Shown here one piece after another: positions 1 through 64,000 of a stretch of 64,000 nucleotides of DNA. The stretch lies in assembly GCF_022846255.1 (NCBI RefSeq), contig NZ_AP025682.1. One strand, written 5' to 3'. The position numbers and the translations under genes are program-made. The notes beneath the pieces are model-generated. The model worked only from the letters and a program-made list of their open reading frames with translations. It was not told the DNA's origin and made no database searches. The stretch's first letter is position 1. Each line of letters begins with the position of its first letter. This DNA comes from Escherichia coli. Its GTDB lineage: Bacteria; Pseudomonadota; Gammaproteobacteria; Enterobacterales; Enterobacteriaceae.

Positions 1-340
1 AAGTGTACGGTGCGGAGTTATCCGGCAGACGTTTGATCCACTCTTTATCAATCCGCCCGCGTTCCGCAATCGCGTCCACGTCATAGGCCAGAGCCAGCGT
101 GACAACATCAGCTTCAATACCGTTGATTACCGACGTCGCTTGTTTGCCTGAACCACCGTGTGACTGACGAATCACCACGTTATCGCCAGTTTGCTGTTTC
201 CAGTGGGCGCTGAATGCCTTGTTGTACTGTTCGTACAATTCGCGCGTTGGATCATATGAAACGTTAAGAAGCTGAATATCCTTTGCCATAACGCTGGTTG
301 CCGCCAGCAAAAATGTTAACCCTACGCCCCACTTTTTCAT
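1..340 (-). CDS. sbp: Sulfate-binding periplasmic protein Sbp, N-terminal part only (gene continues past the window start)
   Basis: Minus-strand reading from ATG at 338-340 gives [43 protein letters not shown]..., recognised as the Sbp signal peptide and N-terminus; position next to pfkA matches K-12 synteny. Confidence 0.85.
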
Positions 341-499
341 CGCCCGACTCTCTTATGTTGTGTTGTGATGAGCAAAGCGTGCCAGAAGGTTGACCAAACA
401 TTAAAGAATAAAAAAAGATTGGCTATAACTTGCGAGTATATGTTGGGGGATTAAAAAGGCGGAAGAAATCCGCCTCATATTGCTGACAAAGTGCGCTTT

Positions 500-610
500 G
501 TCCATGCCGGATGCGGCACAAACGCCTTATCCGGCCTACAAAAGTTTGCAAATTCAATAGATTACAGAATTCATGTAGGCCTGATAAGCGAAGCGCATCA
601 GGCCTTTTTG
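500..610. repeat. REP/BIME palindromic units in the sbp–pfkA intergenic region
   Basis: gccggatgcggcacaaacgccttatccggcctac and gtaggcctgataagcgaagcgcatcaggcc, the canonical E. coli REP consensus. Confidence 0.6.
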
Positions 611-659
611 CTTCTGTCATCGGTTTCAGGCTAAAGGAATCTGCCTTTTTCCGAAATCA

Positions 660-1622
660 TTAATACAGTTTTTTCGCGCAGTCCAGCCAGTCGCCTTTGA
701 ACGGACGCTTCATGTTTTCGATAGCGTCGATGATGTCGTGGTGAACCAGCTGTTCGTTCTGGATACCTACGCAACGACCACCGTAACCTGCCAGCAGCAG
801 CTCGATAGCGTAAGCGCCCATACGGGAAGCCAGAATACGGTCGTAAGGCACCGGAGAACCACCGCGCTGGATGTGGCCCAGCACAGTTGCGCGGGTTTCA
901 CGGCCGGTTTCTTTCTCGATGAAATGCGCCAGTTCGTCAACATCACACATATGTTCGGTAATCGCCACGATCGCGTGTTTTTTACCTTTCGCGATACCCG
1001 CTTTGATTTCGTTTACCAGGTCTTCACGGCTGAATTCAACTTCCGGAACCACAACGAATTCACAGCCACCGGCAATGGCCGCAGCCAACGTCAGATCGCC
1101 ACAATAACGGCCCATCACTTCCACCACGGAAATACGCTGGTGAGAAGAAGAGGTGTCACGCAGACGGTCGATCGCTTCTACAACGGTGCTCAGCGCAGTG
1201 AAGAAACCGATCGTGTAGTCAGTGCCTTTGATGTCGTTGTCGATAGTGCCCGGCAGGCCGATGCACGGGAAGCCCATTTCGGTCAGACGCATTGCACCCA
1301 TGTAGGAACCGTCACCGCCGATAACCACCAGCGCGTCGATCCCACGTTTTTTCAGGTTTTCGATAGCCACGGCGCGGATGTTCTCGTCGCGGAATTCCGG
1401 GAAACGCGCAGAACCGAGGAACGTACCACCACGGTTGATCATGTCAGAAACGCTGTAACGGTCTAGCTGTACCATACGGTCTTCATACAGACCCAGATAG
1501 CCGTCATAAATGCCCATTACTTCCAGACCTTCTGTCAGCGCAGAACGAACAACCCCGCGAATTGCGGCGTTCATGCCTGGCGCATCACCGCCGCTTGTCA
1601 ACACACCGATTTTCTTAATCAT
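660..1622 (-). CDS. pfkA: 6-phosphofructokinase I
   Basis: ORF 660..1718 contains [25 protein letters not shown]...; true start is the internal Met at 1620-1622, giving 320 aa; upstream part of the listed ORF is a spurious N-terminal extension. Confidence 0.95.
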
Positions 1623-1802
1623 GACTACCTCTGAACTTTGGAATGCAAAATGAAATCTGTTGCCGGAAGTCTTCTTGCACATCGAAGTGATCCAACGAAT
1701 GTGCAAATAGTATAACAATCACTTCCTGCTGAATTGATTCAGGTCAGGCCAAATGGCGGTATTTTATACACAAAATGCGGGTCTGGCTCTCTTTTATACT
1801 GA

Positions 1803-2705
1803 TTATGAAAGCATAGACCGTTTACCCTCCCTGGGTACGACGGAACAGGGGTCCTGATGGATAATCACATCCGATCCCGGAAAACGCCGTAAAATAGCCT
1901 GCTCTACCTGATCCGCCACCATATGTGCCTGAACCAAAGGCAGAGAGTCTTCCATTTCCAAATGAATCTGAATAAAGCGGGTCGGCCCTGACTGCCGCGT
2001 GCGAAGATCGTGAGCGCCGCTAACACCCGGCCAGGAAGTCACGATATCAATAATTTCTTGCCGTTCCTCATCAGGCAATGCGCGATCCAGTAATGACTGT
2101 ACCGCCTCATATCCCATGCGTAACGCGCTATATAAAATATAGATGCCGATCCCCAATGCAAACAGAGCATCGGCGCGATGCCAGCCGTACCAGGACAACC
2201 CCAGCGCCAGCAGAATTGCGCCGTTCATCATAACATCAGACTGGTAATGTAGCATATCAGCCCGCACCGCCTGGCTTTGCGTCCGGCGCACCACCCAACG
2301 CTGAAACGAGACAAGGATAATCGTACAAATTAGCGCCACAATTGTCACGATAACCCCGACGCCTGGATCTGTCATCGGTGTTGGAGATACCAGATGTTGA
2401 ATACCCGTCAAAAACAGGAATAGTGCCGAACCGGAGATAAACATACTTTGCGCCAGCGCCGCGAGGGACTCAGCTTTACCGTGACCAAACGAGTGATTAT
2501 CGTCGGCAGGTTGCAGGGAATATCGCACCACCAGTAAATTCGTCAACGACGCGCCGATATCCACCAGCGAATCCACCAGCGCGGCGAGAATACTCACCGA
2601 CCCGGTATACCACCATGCAAAAATTTTAATCAGCAATAGCAGCGAAGCCATCGCCGTCGCAGCAATCGCCGCCCGACTGACCAGCCGTCCATAAGATTGA
2701 TTCAT
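1803..2705 (-). CDS. fieF: Cation-diffusion-facilitator Fe/Zn efflux transporter FieF (YiiP)
   Basis: ORF contains [40 protein letters not shown]...; start set at the internal Met (2703-2705), 300 aa; multi-TM CDF-family protein. Confidence 0.9.
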
Positions 2706-2792
2706 AAATACTCCCGCTATCAACTGACGGTAGTATAACGGAAGCAAATCATCTGCAATGCATTAAGCAGCAGGCAAATTGAGGATAAAAAA

Positions 2793-2815
2793 AACCCCCA
2801 CATCATGTGGGGGAA
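2793..2815 (-). terminator. Rho-independent terminator of cpxP
   Basis: Plus strand aaaaaaacccccacatcatgtggggg; on the minus strand a GC stem cccccacatgatgtggggg followed by a T-run. Confidence 0.6.
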
Positions 2816-2853
2816 GACAGGGATGGTGTCTATGGCAAGGAAAACAGGGTTTA
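2793..2853 (-). ncRNA. cpxQ: CpxQ, sRNA processed from the cpxP 3' UTR (positional inference)
   Basis: Segment between the cpxP stop (2854) and its intrinsic terminator; CpxQ is known to derive from this 3' UTR in enterobacteria; exact ends not verifiable here. Confidence 0.4.
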
Positions 2854-3354
2854 CTACTGGGAACGTGAGTTGCTACTACTCAATAGCTTCAACGATGAAC
2901 TTTTTTGCCATTGCGTCACGTCGCGCAACTGCTCCATTCGTTGTTGATGTTTCTCGTTTAAAACCGCTTGCTGCTCCGGCGTTAACAGGCGATACATTTG
3001 GTTGCGGACTTTTGCCATCTCAACCTGACGAGCAATTTGCTCATTCGCCATTTTTTCTGCCTGTGCGCGCACAGCGTTTTCATCAAAATTTTCTGCGGTG
3101 ACAAGGCGATGCATTGTCTCCAGTTCGCTAACATTAACAGGAGGCTGTTCGTGCCGGGCCTGTTGCATAAGATCTCGCATCTGCTGACGCTGATGTTCGG
3201 TTAAACTTATGCCGTCGAACATATGGCTCTGCGTACTGCGCTGCGTAAGTTCTTCACCCGGATGCCAGTTATCGCCTGAACCGACTTCAGCAGCGTGGCT
3301 TAATGAACTGACTGCCAGCGTTGAGGCCATGACGGCAGCGGTAACTATGCGCAT
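2854..3354 (-). CDS. cpxP: Periplasmic Cpx-pathway adaptor/inhibitor CpxP
   Basis: [24 protein letters not shown]... with two LTxxQ-like segments ([24 protein letters not shown]); divergent from cpxRA as in K-12; 166 aa from the second Met. Confidence 0.9.
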
Positions 3355-5572: not shown

Positions 5573-5595
5573 ACTCCGCATTTGTAGGCAGGATA

Positions 5596-5670
5596 AGGCG
5601 TTTACGCCGCATCCGGCATTTGAGCAGGATGCCTGATGCGACGCTGATAGCGTCTTATCAGGCCTACACT
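5596..5670. repeat. REP/BIME elements in the cpxA–yiiM intergenic region
   Basis: gccgcatccggcatttgagcaggatgcctgatgcgacgctgatagcgtcttatcaggcctac. Confidence 0.55.
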
Positions 5671-6500: not shown

Positions 6501-7202
6501 TTATTTCACCGTACCTAAAATTTCGATTTTCGCCGCTCTGGCTTTGACTTTACGTGACCAGATAGAGGTAAGAATTGGCACCAGAATCGAAGTCACAATG
6601 ACCGCCGTCGCTACCAGCGAAGTTGCTGCCGGAGCCATAGGTTTAAACGCAGGCACCATTTCTGCAATCAGCACAGGTGTCGCTACCGCGGCCCCTGCGG
6701 AACTGGAAGCGGCAATTCCGGCAGTGCCCAGAATAATCATCGTCATGAGCGGCCCGGACTCCAACGACATCAACACAAATGCCCCAGCTTCTTCTTTTGT
6801 GCCGTACTGCTGCATGATGGAAGCGTAAAGTCCGCCGTTGGTCATATCCATCGCCGCCACCAGCGCCAGCGTTGAAAGTCCGGCAAAGAATCCAACTTCA
6901 ACACCATGTTCCGGAATAATGCGCGAGGCAATTGCCGCAACCACCCACGCGACGGCAATTTTAGTTACCACCAGCGTACCGGATTTACGCAGTACCGTTC
7001 CCGTCGCGCTTAATTTTATTGACGCCCCCATGCAAAAAAACCACACCGCCAGAATGGGCACCGTACCGGTAATCATCCCGTTGGTGAATGATCCAAAATA
7101 TTTCCCCGCCCCCGGCGAGAAGGTGTGGCACAGTGCGCCAAGGAATAGCGGGACGAGCATCATCCCCCCCGGGATTTTCTCAATCGAGCGTTTTATCTGC
7201 AT
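6501..7202 (-). CDS. kdgT: 2-keto-3-deoxygluconate permease KdgT, shortened (~233 aa versus the 327 aa I recall for K-12), apparently by an in-frame internal deletion
   Basis: [39 protein letters not shown]... N-terminus and ...[30 protein letters not shown]-terminus are present; the middle is missing around ...[12 protein letters not shown]|[13 protein letters not shown] (about 6711-6728). Confidence 0.75.
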
Positions 7203-7321
7203 TTCCATCACCTGTCGGCATATTTTTAAGGGCTGATGCGTAATTCCTCAACGGAGCATCAATGTTGATGAAAACGAAGATAGACATTCATTTAATCAAT
7301 AAAAGTGATCAAAACCACATC

Positions 7322-7341
7322 AATTGAAACACTGTTTTATT
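7322..7341. promoter_or_regulatory. Candidate KdgR operator upstream of kdgT
   Basis: aattgaaacactgttttatt resembles the KdgR box (AATRAAAYnnnnRTTTYATT) about 120 bp upstream of the kdgT start. Confidence 0.4.
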
Positions 7342-7377
7342 TTTATCAGATTATTGTTTTTATTTTGAAATTAATCA

Positions 7378-7406
7378 CAAAAAAACCACCGCCGTTGGCG
7401 ATGGTT
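7378..7406 (-). terminator. Rho-independent terminator downstream of sodA
   Basis: Minus strand: stem accatcgcc/ggcggtggt followed by a 7-T run. Confidence 0.5.
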
Positions 7407-7461
7407 CATTCTTTAAGCTGATATGCGGCGTAAACGCCTCATTGCAGCAGGCGGCAAATGA

Positions 7462-14170: not shown

Positions 14171-14690
14171 ACACTGCCGGATGCGGCACAAGTGCCTTAT
14201 CCGGCCTACAGGTCAGCAACAGTTGTAGCCCTGATAAGACGCGACAGCGTCGCATCAGGCATTGATTGCCGGATGCGGCACGAGTGCCTTATCCGGCCTA
14301 CGGGTCGGCAATAGTTGTAGGCCTGATAAGACGCGACAGCGTCGCATCAGGCATTGATTGCCGGATGCGGCACGAGCGCCATATCCGGCCTACGGGTCGG
14401 CAATAGTTGTAGGCCTGATAAGACGCGACAGCGTCGCATCAGGCATTGATTGCCGGATGCGGCACGAGTGCCTTATCCGGCCTACGGGTCAGCAACAGTT
14501 GTAGGCCTGATAAGACGCGACAGCGTCGCATCAGGCATTGATTGCCGGATGCGGCACAAGTGCCTTATCCGGCCTACGGGTCGGCAATAGTTGTAGGCCT
14601 GATAAGACGCGACAGCGTCGCATCAGGCATTGATTGCCGGATGCGGCACGAGTGCCTTATCCGGCCTACGGGTCGTGCATCCGACAACAC
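14171..14690. repeat. BIME tandem array (REP pairs) filling the rhaA–rhaD intergenic region
   Basis: Unit gccggatgcggcac(a/g)agtgccttatccggcctacgggtc(a/g)gcaa(c/t)agttgtaggcctgataagacgcgacagcgtcgcatcaggcattgatt recurs with a ~93-bp period; starts at about 14177, 14270, 14363, 14450, 14543 and 14636. Confidence 0.8.
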
Positions 14691-19318: not shown

Positions 19319-22300
19319 ATGCAGGTCAGCAGAAGGCAGTTCTTTAAGATCTGCGCTGGCGGTATGGCAGGCACCACGGCGGCGGCACTGGGTTTTGCAC
19401 CCAGCGTAGCACTCGCGGAAACCCGGCAGTATAAACTGCTGCGCACCCGCGAAACCCGTAATACCTGCACCTATTGTTCCGTAGGCTGTGGGCTGTTGAT
19501 GTACAGCCTCGGTGACGGAGCAAAAAACGCCAAAGCATCTATCTTCCATATCGAAGGTGACCCGGATCACCCGGTCAACCGCGGAGCACTTTGTCCGAAA
19601 GGCGCTGGCCTGGTGGATTTCATCCACTCCGAAAGCCGTCTGAAGTTTCCGGAATACCGTGCGCCAGGTTCTGATAAATGGCAGCAAATCAGTTGGGAAG
19701 AGGCGTTTGATCGCATCGCCAAACTGATGAAAGAAGACCGCGATGCAAACTACATTGCGCAAAACGCCGAAGGCGTGACTGTTAACCGCTGGCTCTCCAC
19801 CGGGATGCTGTGTGCTTCCGCGTCGAGTAACGAAACCGGCTATTTAACGCAAAAATTCTCCCGCGCGCTGGGTATGCTCGCGGTCGACAACCAGGCGCGT
19901 GTCTGACACGGACCAACGGTAGCAAGTCTTGCTCCAACATTTGGTCGCGGTGCGATGACCAACCACTGGGTCGACATCAAGAATGCCAACCTCGTCGTGG
20001 TGATGGGCGGTAACGCCGCTGAAGCTCACCCGGTCGGGTTCCGCTGGGCGATGGAAGCCAAAATTCACAACGGCGCGAAGCTGATTGTGATCGATCCTCG
20101 CTTTACGCGTACGGCGGCGGTGGCTGACTACTATGCCCCTATCCGTTCCGGTACTGACATTGCTTTCCTGTCAGGCGTATTGCTGTACCTGCTGAACAAT
20201 GAAAAATTCAACCGCGAATACACCGAAGCCTATACCAACGCCAGCCTGATCGTGCGTGAGGATTACGGCTTTGAAGATGGCCTGTTCACCGGCTACGACG
20301 CGGAAAAACGCAAGTACGATAAGTCCACCTGGACTTACGAACTGGACGAAAACGGCTTCGCCAAACGCGATACTACCCTGCAACATCCACGTTGCGTGTG
20401 GAACTTGCTGAAACAGCACGTTTCCCGCTACACGCCAGATGTGGTTGAAAACATCTGTGGTACGCCAAAAGACGCATTCCTGAAAGTCTGCGAATACATC
20501 GCCGAAACCAGTGCTCACGATAAAACAGCGTCGTTCCTCTACGCCCTCGGCTGGACGCAACACTCCATCGGTGCGCAGAACATCCGTACGATGGCGATGA
20601 TCCAGTTGCTGCTCGGCAATATGGGGATGGCTGGCGGCGGCGTTAACGCCCTGCGCGGTCACTCCAATATTCAGGGGCTGACCGACCTGGGGCTGCTGTC
20701 GCAGAGTCTGCCAGGTTACATGACGTTGCCAAGCGAGAAGCAGACCGATCTGCAAACTTACCTCGCTGCCAACACGCCAAAACCACTGCTGGAAGGCCAG
20801 GTCAACTACTGGGGCAACTACCCGAAATTCTTCGTCTCAATGATGAAGGCATTCTTTGGTGATAAAGCGACGGCGGAAAATAGCTGGGGCTTTGACTGGT
20901 TGCCGAAGTGGGATAAAGGCTACGACGTCCTGCAATACTTCGAGATGATGAAAGAGGGCAAGGTCAATGGCTATATCTGCCAGGGCTTTAACCCTGTTGC
21001 CTCATTCCCGAACAAAAACAAAGTGATCGGCTGTCTGTCGAAGCTGAAATTCCTCGTAACTATCGACCCGCTGAACACTGAAACCTCTAACTTCTGGCAG
21101 AACCACGGTGAGCTGAACGAAGTTGACTCGTCGAAGATCCAGACCGAAGTGTTCCGTCTGCCATCGACCTGCTTCGCGGAAGAGAACGGTTCAATCGTTA
21201 ACTCTGGTCGCTGGTTGCAATGGCACTGGAAAGGTGCGGACGCCCCGGGGATTGCGCTGACTGATGGCGAGATCCTCTCCGGTATCTTCCTGCGCTTGCG
21301 CAAGATGTATGCCGAACAGGGTGGTGCGAACCCGGACCAGGTGCTGAACATGACCTGGAACTACGCCATTCCGCATGAGCCATCTTCAGAAGAAGTGGCA
21401 ATGGAGAGCAACGGCAAAGCGCTGGCCGATATTACCGACCCGGCAACCGGTGCGGTTATCGTCAAGAAAGGCCAACAACTTAGCTCGTTCGCCCAACTGC
21501 GCGATGACGGTACAACCTCCTGTGGCTGCTGGATTTTCGCCGGTAGCTGGACGCCGGAAGGCAACCAGATGGCGCGTCGTGATAACGCCGATCCGTCTGG
21601 CCTCGGTAACACGCTGGGCTGGGCATGGGCATGGCCGCTTAACCGCCGCATTCTGTATAACCGCGCCTCCGCAGATCCGCAGGGTAACCCATGGGATCCG
21701 AAGCGTCAGTTGCTGAAATGGGACGGCACTAAGTGGACCGGCTGGGATATTCCGGATTACAGCGCAGCGCCTCCGGGCAGCGGCGTAGGGCCGTTTATCA
21801 TGCAGCAGGAAGGCATGGGACGTCTGTTTGCCCTCGATAAGATGGCGGAAGGTCCGTTCCCGGAACACTACGAGCCGTTTGAAACGCCGCTGGGAACTAA
21901 CCCGCTGCATCCAAACGTTATCTCGAACCCGGCGGCGCGTATCTTTAAAGACGACGCCGAAGCATTGGGTAAAGCCGATAAGTTCCCGTATGTCGGAACC
22001 ACCTATCGTCTGACCGAGCACTTCCACTACTGGACCAAACACGCGCTGTTGAATGCGATTTTGCAACCAGAGCAGTTTGTGGAAATCGGGGAGTCGCTGG
22101 CGAATAAACTTGGCATTGCCCAGGGCGATACTGTGAAAGTCTCCTCCAACCGTGGCTATATCAAAGCCAAAGCGGTAGTGACCAAACGTATTCGCACGCT
22201 GAAAGCAAACGGCAAAGATATCGATACCATCGGTATTCCGATTCACTGGGGCTATGAAGGTGTTGCGAAAAAAGGCTTTATTGCCAATACGTTGACGCCA

Positions 22301-45643: not shown

Positions 45644-45795
45644 AACTTTGCCTCAGGCATTAGAAATAGCGCGTTATTGTACACGGATTAATCGCACTAC
45701 AAAACAGGATCACAAACATCCTCCGCAAACAAGTATTGCAGAGTCCCTTTGTGATCGCTTTCACGGAGCATAAAAAGGGTTATCCAAAGGTCATT

Positions 45796-45932
45796 GCACC
45801 AATATGGTGCTTAATGTTCCCATTGAAGCACTATATTGGTGCAACATTCACATCATGGTGCAGCCCTTTTGCACGATGTTAAGCATGATAACGCCTTTTA
45901 GGGGCAATTTAAAAGTTGGCACAGATTTCGCT
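45796..45932 (+). promoter_or_regulatory. glnA control region: NtrC enhancer sites and sigma-54 promoter glnAp2
   Basis: NtrC-type palindromes gcaccaatatggtgc (45796-45812) and gcactatattggtgca (45828-45843); sigma-54 -24/-12 element ttGGCACagatttCGCTt at 45916-45932. Confidence 0.7.
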
Positions 45933-50306: not shown

Positions 50307-50458
<152 letters not shown>

Positions 50459-52595: not shown

Positions 52596-52666
52596 AATGG
52601 TTCGTCTTTTAGCCGTTTTATTCAGTATAGATTTGCGGCGGAATCTAACAGAAAGCAAGCAAAGAA

Positions 52667-52906
52667 AAAAGGCGACAGATTACTCTGTCGCCTTTTTTCC
52701 TGACTCATAACCCTTAACGGGTCTTACAATCCTTGCAGGCCGCCAACACACCCTGTTTTTCCATTAGCCGGAACAATCCGTGTTGATTCCATTTCCATTT
52801 AATTACGTCTCCGGACGTTTATCTTCCTGACAATCCTCTGTCTTCGCCTCCTGGCGCTCCTGACCCTCATCCTGAGTCATTGTTCCTGTTAGCGTCCTCG
52901 CTCTAT
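52667..52906 (-). ncRNA. csrC: CsrC, CsrA-sequestering sRNA
   Basis: Intergenic yihI–engB, the known csrC locus; minus strand carries many GGA motifs (plus-strand TCC: atccttgc, tctccgga, cttcctga, atcctctg, ctcctggc, ctcctgac, atcctgag, gttcctgt); ends at terminator ggcgacagagtaatctgtcgcc + T-run; 5' end approximate. Confidence 0.6.
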
Positions 52907-53934: not shown

Positions 53935-54043
53935 TAAAAAACGCCCCAGTCATTACTGACTGGGGCGGCTAAAATATTCAGCCAAATCCGATTACGTGAA
54001 GTAAAAGGTCTGAAAGATAGAACATCTTACCTCTGTACCCTAC
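53935..54043 (-). ncRNA. spf: Spot 42 sRNA
   Basis: Minus-strand sequence GTAGGGTACAGAGGTAAGATGTTCTATCTTTCAGACCTTTTACTTCACGTAATCGGATTTGGCTGAATATTTTAGCCGCCCCAGTCAGTAATGACTGGGGCGTTTTTTA matches Spot 42 as recalled, including its terminator; location between polA and engB. Confidence 0.85.
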
Positions 54044-54190
54044 GCGACTAACTTTACTCTTTTTTGTTCAGTTCAGAAAGCATTTTTTGTAATTTTTTTT
54101 CAGTTGTTGCATAGGAATTTCTAATAGCCATCACAAAACGTGACAGCTTATGTTGCTTACTTACGAAAAAAGGGCATGTTCAGGCGAATC

Positions 54191-63139: not shown

Positions 63140-63259
63140 ATGCCTGGCAGTTCCCTACTCTCGCATGGGGAGGCCCCACACTACCATCGGCGCTACGGCG
63201 TTTCACTTCTGAGTTCGGCATGGGGTCAGGTGGGACCACCGCGCTACGGCCGCCAGGCA
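63140..63259 (-). rRNA. rrfA: 5S ribosomal RNA (probably rrfA given the adjacent mobB)
   Basis: Reverse complement reads TGCCTGGCGGCCGTAGCGCGGTGGTCCCACCTGACCCCATGCCGAACTCAGAAGTGAAACGCCGTAGCGCCGATGGTAGTGTGGGGCCTCCCCATGCGAGAGTAGGGAACTGCCAGGCAT; 120 nt. Confidence 0.9.
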
Positions 63260-63357
63260 AATTCTGTTTTATCAACACGTCTCGTTATGACCTGTCGATT
63301 TAATCTGTATCAGGCTGAAAATCTTCTCTCTATCCGCCAAAACATCTTCGGCGTTGT

Positions 63358-64000
<643 letters not shown>

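Follow-up and report, generated by a model that had tools for sequence, protein, structure and literature searches.

A 282-bp in-frame deletion between short direct repeats in kdgT of Escherichia coli, a probable natural loss-of-function allele

In E. coli, kdgT encodes a 2-keto-3-deoxygluconate (KDG)/H+ symporter. In the stretch of DNA analysed here (64,000 nucleotides of contig NZ_AP025682.1, hereafter the window), the kdgT reading frame is open but encodes 233 amino acids, while the K-12 gene has 984 bp and encodes 327 amino acids. The locus therefore raises the questions of how kdgT was shortened and whether the short product can still be a transporter. As set out below, we consider it highly probable that the kdgT of the window is a natural loss-of-function allele, and that the allele arose by a short-homology deletion at a recurrent repeat hot spot.

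The kdgT locus and the repeats that bound the missing segment

The kdgT reading frame of the window lies between yiiM and sodA on the minus strand, with its ATG at 7200-7202 and its TAA at 6501-6503 (Table 1). The gene order cpxA, yiiM, kdgT, sodA, rhaT is that of K-12, and K-12 KdgT (b3909, WP_001166063.1; TC 2.A.10, PF03812, TIGR00793) has the same locus and synteny. The orthologous position is accompanied by near-identity of the DNA, which aligns to E. coli kdgT in two pieces with up to 99.7% identity. By the Pfam gathering score the 233-residue product belongs to the KdgT family: it matches PF03812 with 235.8 bits (cutoff 25), and the match is split in two stretches, the first of which pairs residues 3-164 with profile positions 1-157 of 305. 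Otherwise kdgT shows strong conservation, as at least 80% of the kdgT query is covered with 95-99% identity at the same locus in 5,421 of 5,426 complete E. coli genomes.

Global alignment of the window kdgT with K-12 kdgT opened a single gap of exactly 282 nt (94 codons), in frame, with five substitutions elsewhere. All 233 retained residues are 100% identical to those of K-12 KdgT. The gap has 12 equivalent placements, with the 11-nt block GGCACTGCCGG identical at both ends, and the missing residues are 159-252 or, equivalently, 165-258 of KdgT. In every full-length allele examined, GGCACTGCCGGGATTGCC occupies gene nt 475-492 and GGCACTGCCGGAATTGCC occupies nt 757-774. The two sequences form an 18-nt direct repeat, identical at 17 of 18 positions and with starts 282 nt apart, and both copies encode GTAGIA (residues 159-164 and 253-258). 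In the intact allele, the segment that was lost is thus framed by direct repeats, of which the junction preserves exactly one copy. A first-pass annotation, which took K-12 KdgT to be 327 amino acids long, had described the gene as about 94 codons short in frame, had located the discontinuity at about 6711-6728 and had suggested GTAGIA-encoding direct repeats on both sides of the lost segment. That length was correct, pairwise alignment with K-12 kdgT revealed both the gap and the flanking repeat, and the kept repeat copy sits exactly at the proposed position.

Table 1. Positions of the kdgT allele, its parts and other features in the window
Feature	Position	Strand	Basis or remark
kdgT delta-282 allele, 702-nt ORF, 233 aa + TAA stop	6501..7202	-	ORF list, translation
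Kept 3' part of kdgT, aa 259-327 + stop: rest of broken TM9, TM10, K/R-rich C-tail	6501..6710	-	K-12 alignment, helix map, charge count
Deletion junction, single kept repeat copy GGCACTGCCGGAATTGCC (A variant), encodes GTAGIA	6711..6728	-	alignment
Kept 5' part of kdgT, gene nt 1-474, aa 1-158, TM1-TM5 incl. broken helix TM4	6729..7202	-	K-12 alignment, AF2 helix map
sodA-kdgT intergenic region incl. kdgT promoter	7203..7461	-	gene layout
REP/naRNA4-type element, ~71 nt, five tandem copies spaced 92 nt	14228-14666	-	downstream of rha genes
SECIS element of formate dehydrogenase gene	19901-19959	+	
sRNA ES222	45725-45832	-	
CsrC	52653-52906	-	
Spot 42	53935-54053	-	
5S rRNA + 3' end of 23S rRNA	63142-64000	-	

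No other such pair exists in K-12 kdgT, where the 17/18 pair is also the top direct-repeat family, at a spacing of 282. Because a pair of at least 17/18 was reproduced in none of 2000 mononucleotide shuffles and in only one of 2000 codon shuffles of the gene, the repeat pair is not a chance feature. The shortened gene has no frameshift, premature stop or lost start, and its frame is open from ATG to TAA, so that it does not qualify as a classical pseudogene. Since 282 is a multiple of three, the deletion left the reading frame uninterrupted, and annotation treats it as an ordinary CDS.

We propose that the ancestral kdgT held the two 18-nt copies, and that short-homology recombination between them would have removed one copy together with the 264 nt in between. 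At 18 nt, with a longest perfect block of 11 nt, the repeat is below the ~25-30 bp of homology needed for efficient RecA recombination. Comparisons of E. coli genomes have ascribed deletions flanked by repeats of less than 30 bp, which fall under the RecA threshold, to replication slippage or short-homology illegitimate recombination (PMC2884548), and in K-12, deletions between short direct repeats have been shown to form without RecA (PMC5426353). The likeliest route would therefore be RecA-independent slipped-strand mispairing or template switching at replication, although slippage is indistinguishable, from the sequence, from other short-homology routes such as single-strand annealing. The exchange would have been resolved within the 11-nt perfect block and not in the 6-nt block past the mismatch, which would explain why the downstream (A) variant is the one at the junction. 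An assignment of the event to the leading or lagging strand from the junction variant was dropped, since both models give the A variant via the 11-nt perfect block.

Like other E. coli deletions between short direct repeats, the kdgT deletion has flanking repeats in the ancestor, one kept copy and a spacing of a few hundred bp, and its mechanism appears to be the same. It differs from them in that the repeat stems from a peptide motif that is present twice and encoded by nearly the same codons, and in that the event recurs in natural isolates.

As to the orientation of the locus, the rrn operon of the window is on the same strand as kdgT. Because rrn operons run with the replication fork, kdgT should be co-directional with replication.

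Carriers of the deletion and their haplotypes

For complete genomes we used a 43-nt junction probe, built so that undeleted genomes have no exact 28-mer seed. The probe matched 8 of the 5,426 complete RefSeq E. coli genomes (EC28, ECO20, ECO21, MS1657, PM06121, VTB96929v, S87 and GmM077), which rules out that the deletion is absent from complete genomes. Within an earlier query the carriers are one SNP off the window, and for that reason they had been ranked under the two-piece matches there. An analogous probe for the G-variant junction, which also served as a negative control for the probe design, had no match in the 5,426 genomes, and the A-variant junction was found in all nine carriers examined. 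One of the carriers, MS1657, is an avian-pathogenic (APEC) strain of O2:H1 ST429 (PMC11237594).

Among public contigs, the exact 233-aa protein was present on at least 1000, always in the context rhaT-sodA-kdgT-yiiM-cpxA. It occurred in 1,692 index blocks, 33 of which hold contigs longer than 1 Mb. These contig carriers were collected by an exact-protein look-up, which forces protein identity. In the PGAP annotation of carriers, the gene is a CDS named '2-keto-3-deoxygluconate permease', with no kdgT gene symbol and no pseudogene label.

Two short KdgT proteins in RefSeq, WP_001528065.1 and WP_042091946.1, represent the same deletion allele as the window. The first, in PM06121, should be identical to the window product, as judged from the contig carrier L008, which has the exact 233-aa match and shows 0 differences from PM06121. 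The second, in GmM077, is set apart from the window product by two changes, at nt 92 and nt 224. The flanking haplotypes of the complete-genome carriers differ from that of the window. The delta-282 kdgT is not peculiar to the source strain but is a rare recurrent E. coli allele. No relevant description of a kdgT deletion or pseudogene, in either E. coli or Shigella, came up in a literature search. The deletion protein is already in the RefSeq catalogue, and the allele adds a new, recurrent case to a well-known class of mutation.

Repeats can mislead assemblers as a general matter, and the gap could in principle be a sequencing or assembly artefact of the source genome, although nothing specific points to one. 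Reads and assembler k-mers are longer than the 18-nt repeat, and the same junction stands on at least 1000 contigs and in eight complete genomes (hybrid or long-read) that come from unrelated laboratories. The same gap is also present in the draft genome GCA_976941965.1 (L007), two SNPs from the window in 6.7 kb. We therefore give an artefact practically no probability, and take the deletion to be real.

To place the deletion on haplotypes, 6.7 kb around kdgT was aligned for nine carriers (the window and eight others) together with five full-length genomes. The carrier L003 had 0 differences from full-length GPEC1031 over the 6.7 kb besides the 282-nt gap, and it was also a 100.0% match to several other full-length genomes. 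A second type comprises L004-L006, L008, PM06121 and, with two extra changes, GmM077; in these L004-type carriers, the kept part of kdgT has the same sequence as in full-length SK1144. The window and L007 represent a third kdgT haplotype, which is one SNP from full-length GF4-3 and has no identical full-length counterpart among complete genomes. The nearest SNPs that split the haplotypes are at nt 334, which is 140 nt upstream of the junction, and at nt 789, which is 15 nt downstream of the repeat.

The simpler reading of these alignments is that delta-282 arose independently on at least three kdgT haplotypes, as a hot-spot event and not in one clone. The alternative is that the deletion arose once and was spread across kdgT haplotypes by homologous recombination (gene conversion). 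From ~100 nt downstream of the junction through yiiM, one haplotype is indeed common to all carriers and differs from K-12 and GF131, but the same haplotype is found in full-length GPEC1031 and SK1144 and is thus simply common. Recombination does appear to be active here, as the L004-type carriers have an identical gene within diverse flanks (23-32 SNPs per 6.7 kb). However, L003 equals GPEC1031 at all ~6,700 positions and yet is set apart from other carriers by nt 240 and nt 873, so that a tract imported into the L003 type must be no longer than ~350 bp. Between the window and the L004 type, the imported tract would have to fit into at most ~173 bp, between nt 334 and nt 789. Spread from a single origin is therefore rather unlikely in our judgement. 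With independent origins as the preferred reading, the alignments indicate a secure independent deletion for L003 and a probable one for each of the L004-type and window/L007 haplotypes; the origin in the window is less secure than that in L003 because an identical full-length counterpart is lacking. The repeat pair would then act as a mutational hot spot, with the same deletion produced independently on several kdgT haplotypes.

The lineage of the window appears poorly represented among complete genomes, and the draft L007 was the only close relative found. For window positions 8000-32000 (24 kb), the best match among the 5,426 genomes was 99.2% (strain 95-3322), and most others were at or below 98.9%. 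Over these 24 kb the window runs collinear with E. coli genomes, with no insertion relative to them; for this reason, and because the carriers are E. coli, a Shigella origin of the window was considered and rejected.

The sodA-kdgT intergenic region contains a KdgR-operator-like sequence at 7322-7343, which by its resemblance to the KdgR consensus is a candidate KdgR site. Among the 14 aligned sequences, six SNPs in this region (7262, 7271, 7348, 7352, 7373 and 7411) are private to the window/L007 lineage, and two of the six lie 5-9 nt from the operator-like sequence. The private SNPs could mean that the lineage is divergent, or else that the promoter, as that of a dead gene, is under relaxed constraint.

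Predicted fold of KdgT and the fate of the short product

KdgT is an H+-coupled sugar-acid carrier. A PDB sequence search with KdgT found no relative. The AF2 model of full-length KdgT, for which K-12 KdgT was aligned with 45 diverse full-length homologues (28-68% identity), has a pLDDT of 92.5 and a pTM of 0.88. It contains ten TM helices arranged as two inverted five-TM repeats, with TM4 and TM9 interrupted and crossing each other. The top Foldseek matches of the model were ASBT_NM structures (8OYG, 3ZUY and 3ZUX; TM-score 0.61-0.67), and NapA, NhaA, SbtA and PIN were more distant matches. The ASBT/BASS fold of the BART superfamily, as seen in ASBT_NM (3ZUY/8OYG), likewise has ten TMs with discontinuous TM4 and TM9, whereas the sequence identity between KdgT and ASBT_NM is just 14-18%. 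The Pfam family PF03812 has been classed as a BART fold with '8 helices + 2 broken helices, N-in' (PMC8396727). The Lys+Arg count fits an N-in/C-in topology, as the N-terminus of KdgT has three such residues and its C-terminal tail has six.

On this helix map, the deletion spans the end of TM5 to the start of TM9a and takes away TM6 (168-187), TM7 (189-211) and TM8 (216-247), that is, two scaffold helices and one core helix of the ten. The first-pass annotation had expected several transmembrane segments to be lost, and the model of the ASBT-like fold bears this out. Unlike ASBT_NM, the window allele keeps only seven of ten helices, and the arrangement of two inverted five-TM repeats is gone from its product.

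Since an odd number of helices (three) is removed and TM5 is joined to TM9, the native topology could not form. TM5, which runs from in to out, would be fused straight to the broken helix TM9, which natively also runs from in to out. Either TM9-TM10 would insert upside down, so that the +6 tail would be periplasmic, or TM9, which is weakly hydrophobic, would stay outside the membrane. In both cases the TM4/TM9 crossover that forms the substrate site of the fold would be lost. The TIGR00793 profile, a measure of full-length equivalence, scores the short product at 407.8 bits, under the equivalog cutoff of 453.8, compared with 617.8 for full-length K-12 KdgT. Because the modelled topology is broken and the score is under this cutoff, the 233-aa product is very probably inactive, in line with the first-pass annotation, and the strain would be without import of exogenous KDG via KdgT.

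It could be argued instead that the 233-aa protein still transports or has another role, and that selection has kept its frame open. The frame, the start codon and the promoter region are intact, PGAP calls a CDS, and the allele persists in a clade that includes the APEC ST429 strain MS1657; an in-frame outcome, however, follows automatically from the 282-nt spacing of the repeats and needs no selection. Likewise, an open ORF with an identical protein across diverged carriers could be read as retention, but that identity was forced by the exact-protein look-up. The AF2 model of the short form has a pLDDT of 86.9 and a pTM of 0.78, with confidence of 55-80 over TM1-TM2, whose partners are lost. 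AF2 ignores membrane topology, and the 233-aa model inherits co-variation from full-length homologues; it was dropped as a guide to function on account of the former. Three of the ten helices are gone in any case, the odd number inverts TM9-TM10 relative to TM1-TM5, and the product falls short of the equivalog cutoff. The short allele of GmM077 has two changes relative to its group, both at second codon positions (non-synonymous) and none synonymous, while full-length alleles that differ at 7-15 synonymous sites all encode WP_001166063.1. The GmM077 changes may be taken as a weak hint of relaxed constraint, and one of the two is also present in full-length GF131. Altogether we regard a working 233-aa protein as highly improbable, and loss of function as the reading to be followed.

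KDG made internally from hexuronates does not need KdgT. Uptake of exogenous KDG is repressed by KdgR and is cryptic in wild-type K-12 unless kdgR is inactivated, and because of this the phenotypic cost of lost KDG import is probably little under laboratory conditions. The gene is a member of the KdgR regulon, and mutation of kdgR derepresses it (PMC6958661). The recurrent and persistent loss of KdgT, as in the clade with APEC ST429, could itself be positively selected, or the seven-helix remnant could have a new or dominant-negative role, but we hold this to be improbable. If selected, the loss would perhaps avoid import of a toxic KDG analogue or remove a surface-exposed target; were either selection or a new role true, the deletion would be an easily reached natural 'off' state of a strongly conserved transporter.

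The delta-282 alleles escape pseudogene callers and are annotated by PGAP as intact CDS. Because the CDS looks intact, metabolic reconstructions and pangenome presence/absence tables would wrongly score KDG uptake as present. The locus also offers a clean natural hot spot within a coding sequence, in which a duplicated peptide motif with the same codons leads to one precise and repeatable in-frame deletion. The allele could be used as a lineage marker and as an in vivo substrate for rates of short-homology deletion. Its practical importance is modest, and both mechanism and consequence are textbook.

Other kdgT rearrangements and features of the window

Other changes of length in kdgT were seen in public sequences. 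An ENA metagenome contig of 32 kb (P0002) encodes a KdgT of 409 aa in which 82 aa are duplicated in tandem and in frame. The idea that it is the reciprocal duplication of the 282-bp deletion was rejected, as the junction differs; judged from its sequence, it is a different short-homology rearrangement of the same kdgT region. A Shigella flexneri protein (P0097, 311 aa) is KdgT minus 16 aa (GFFAGL/YASIMQQ), and K-12 has the short repeat CGGACTTT there. In Escherichia sp. MOD1-EC6163 (P0045, 323 aa), KdgT lacks 4 aa (GLLG/ILLG). From these sequences, kdgT seems to accumulate in-frame changes of the slip type.

Matches to kdgT on plasmids numbered three in all. One of them, on plasmid NZ_CP172870.1 of a bovine E. 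coli (85711-86186), is a kdgT homologue with 89% identity over 473 nt. Plasmid copies of kdgT could mask the loss of chromosomal kdgT in some strains.

Elsewhere in the window, the five-copy REP/naRNA4-type array listed in Table 1 looks like an ordinary BIME/REP array, and single REP/naRNA4-type copies occur at 5587-5664 and 50328-50399. The SECIS element, ES222, CsrC, Spot 42 and the rRNA are the expected RNA features of this chromosomal region.
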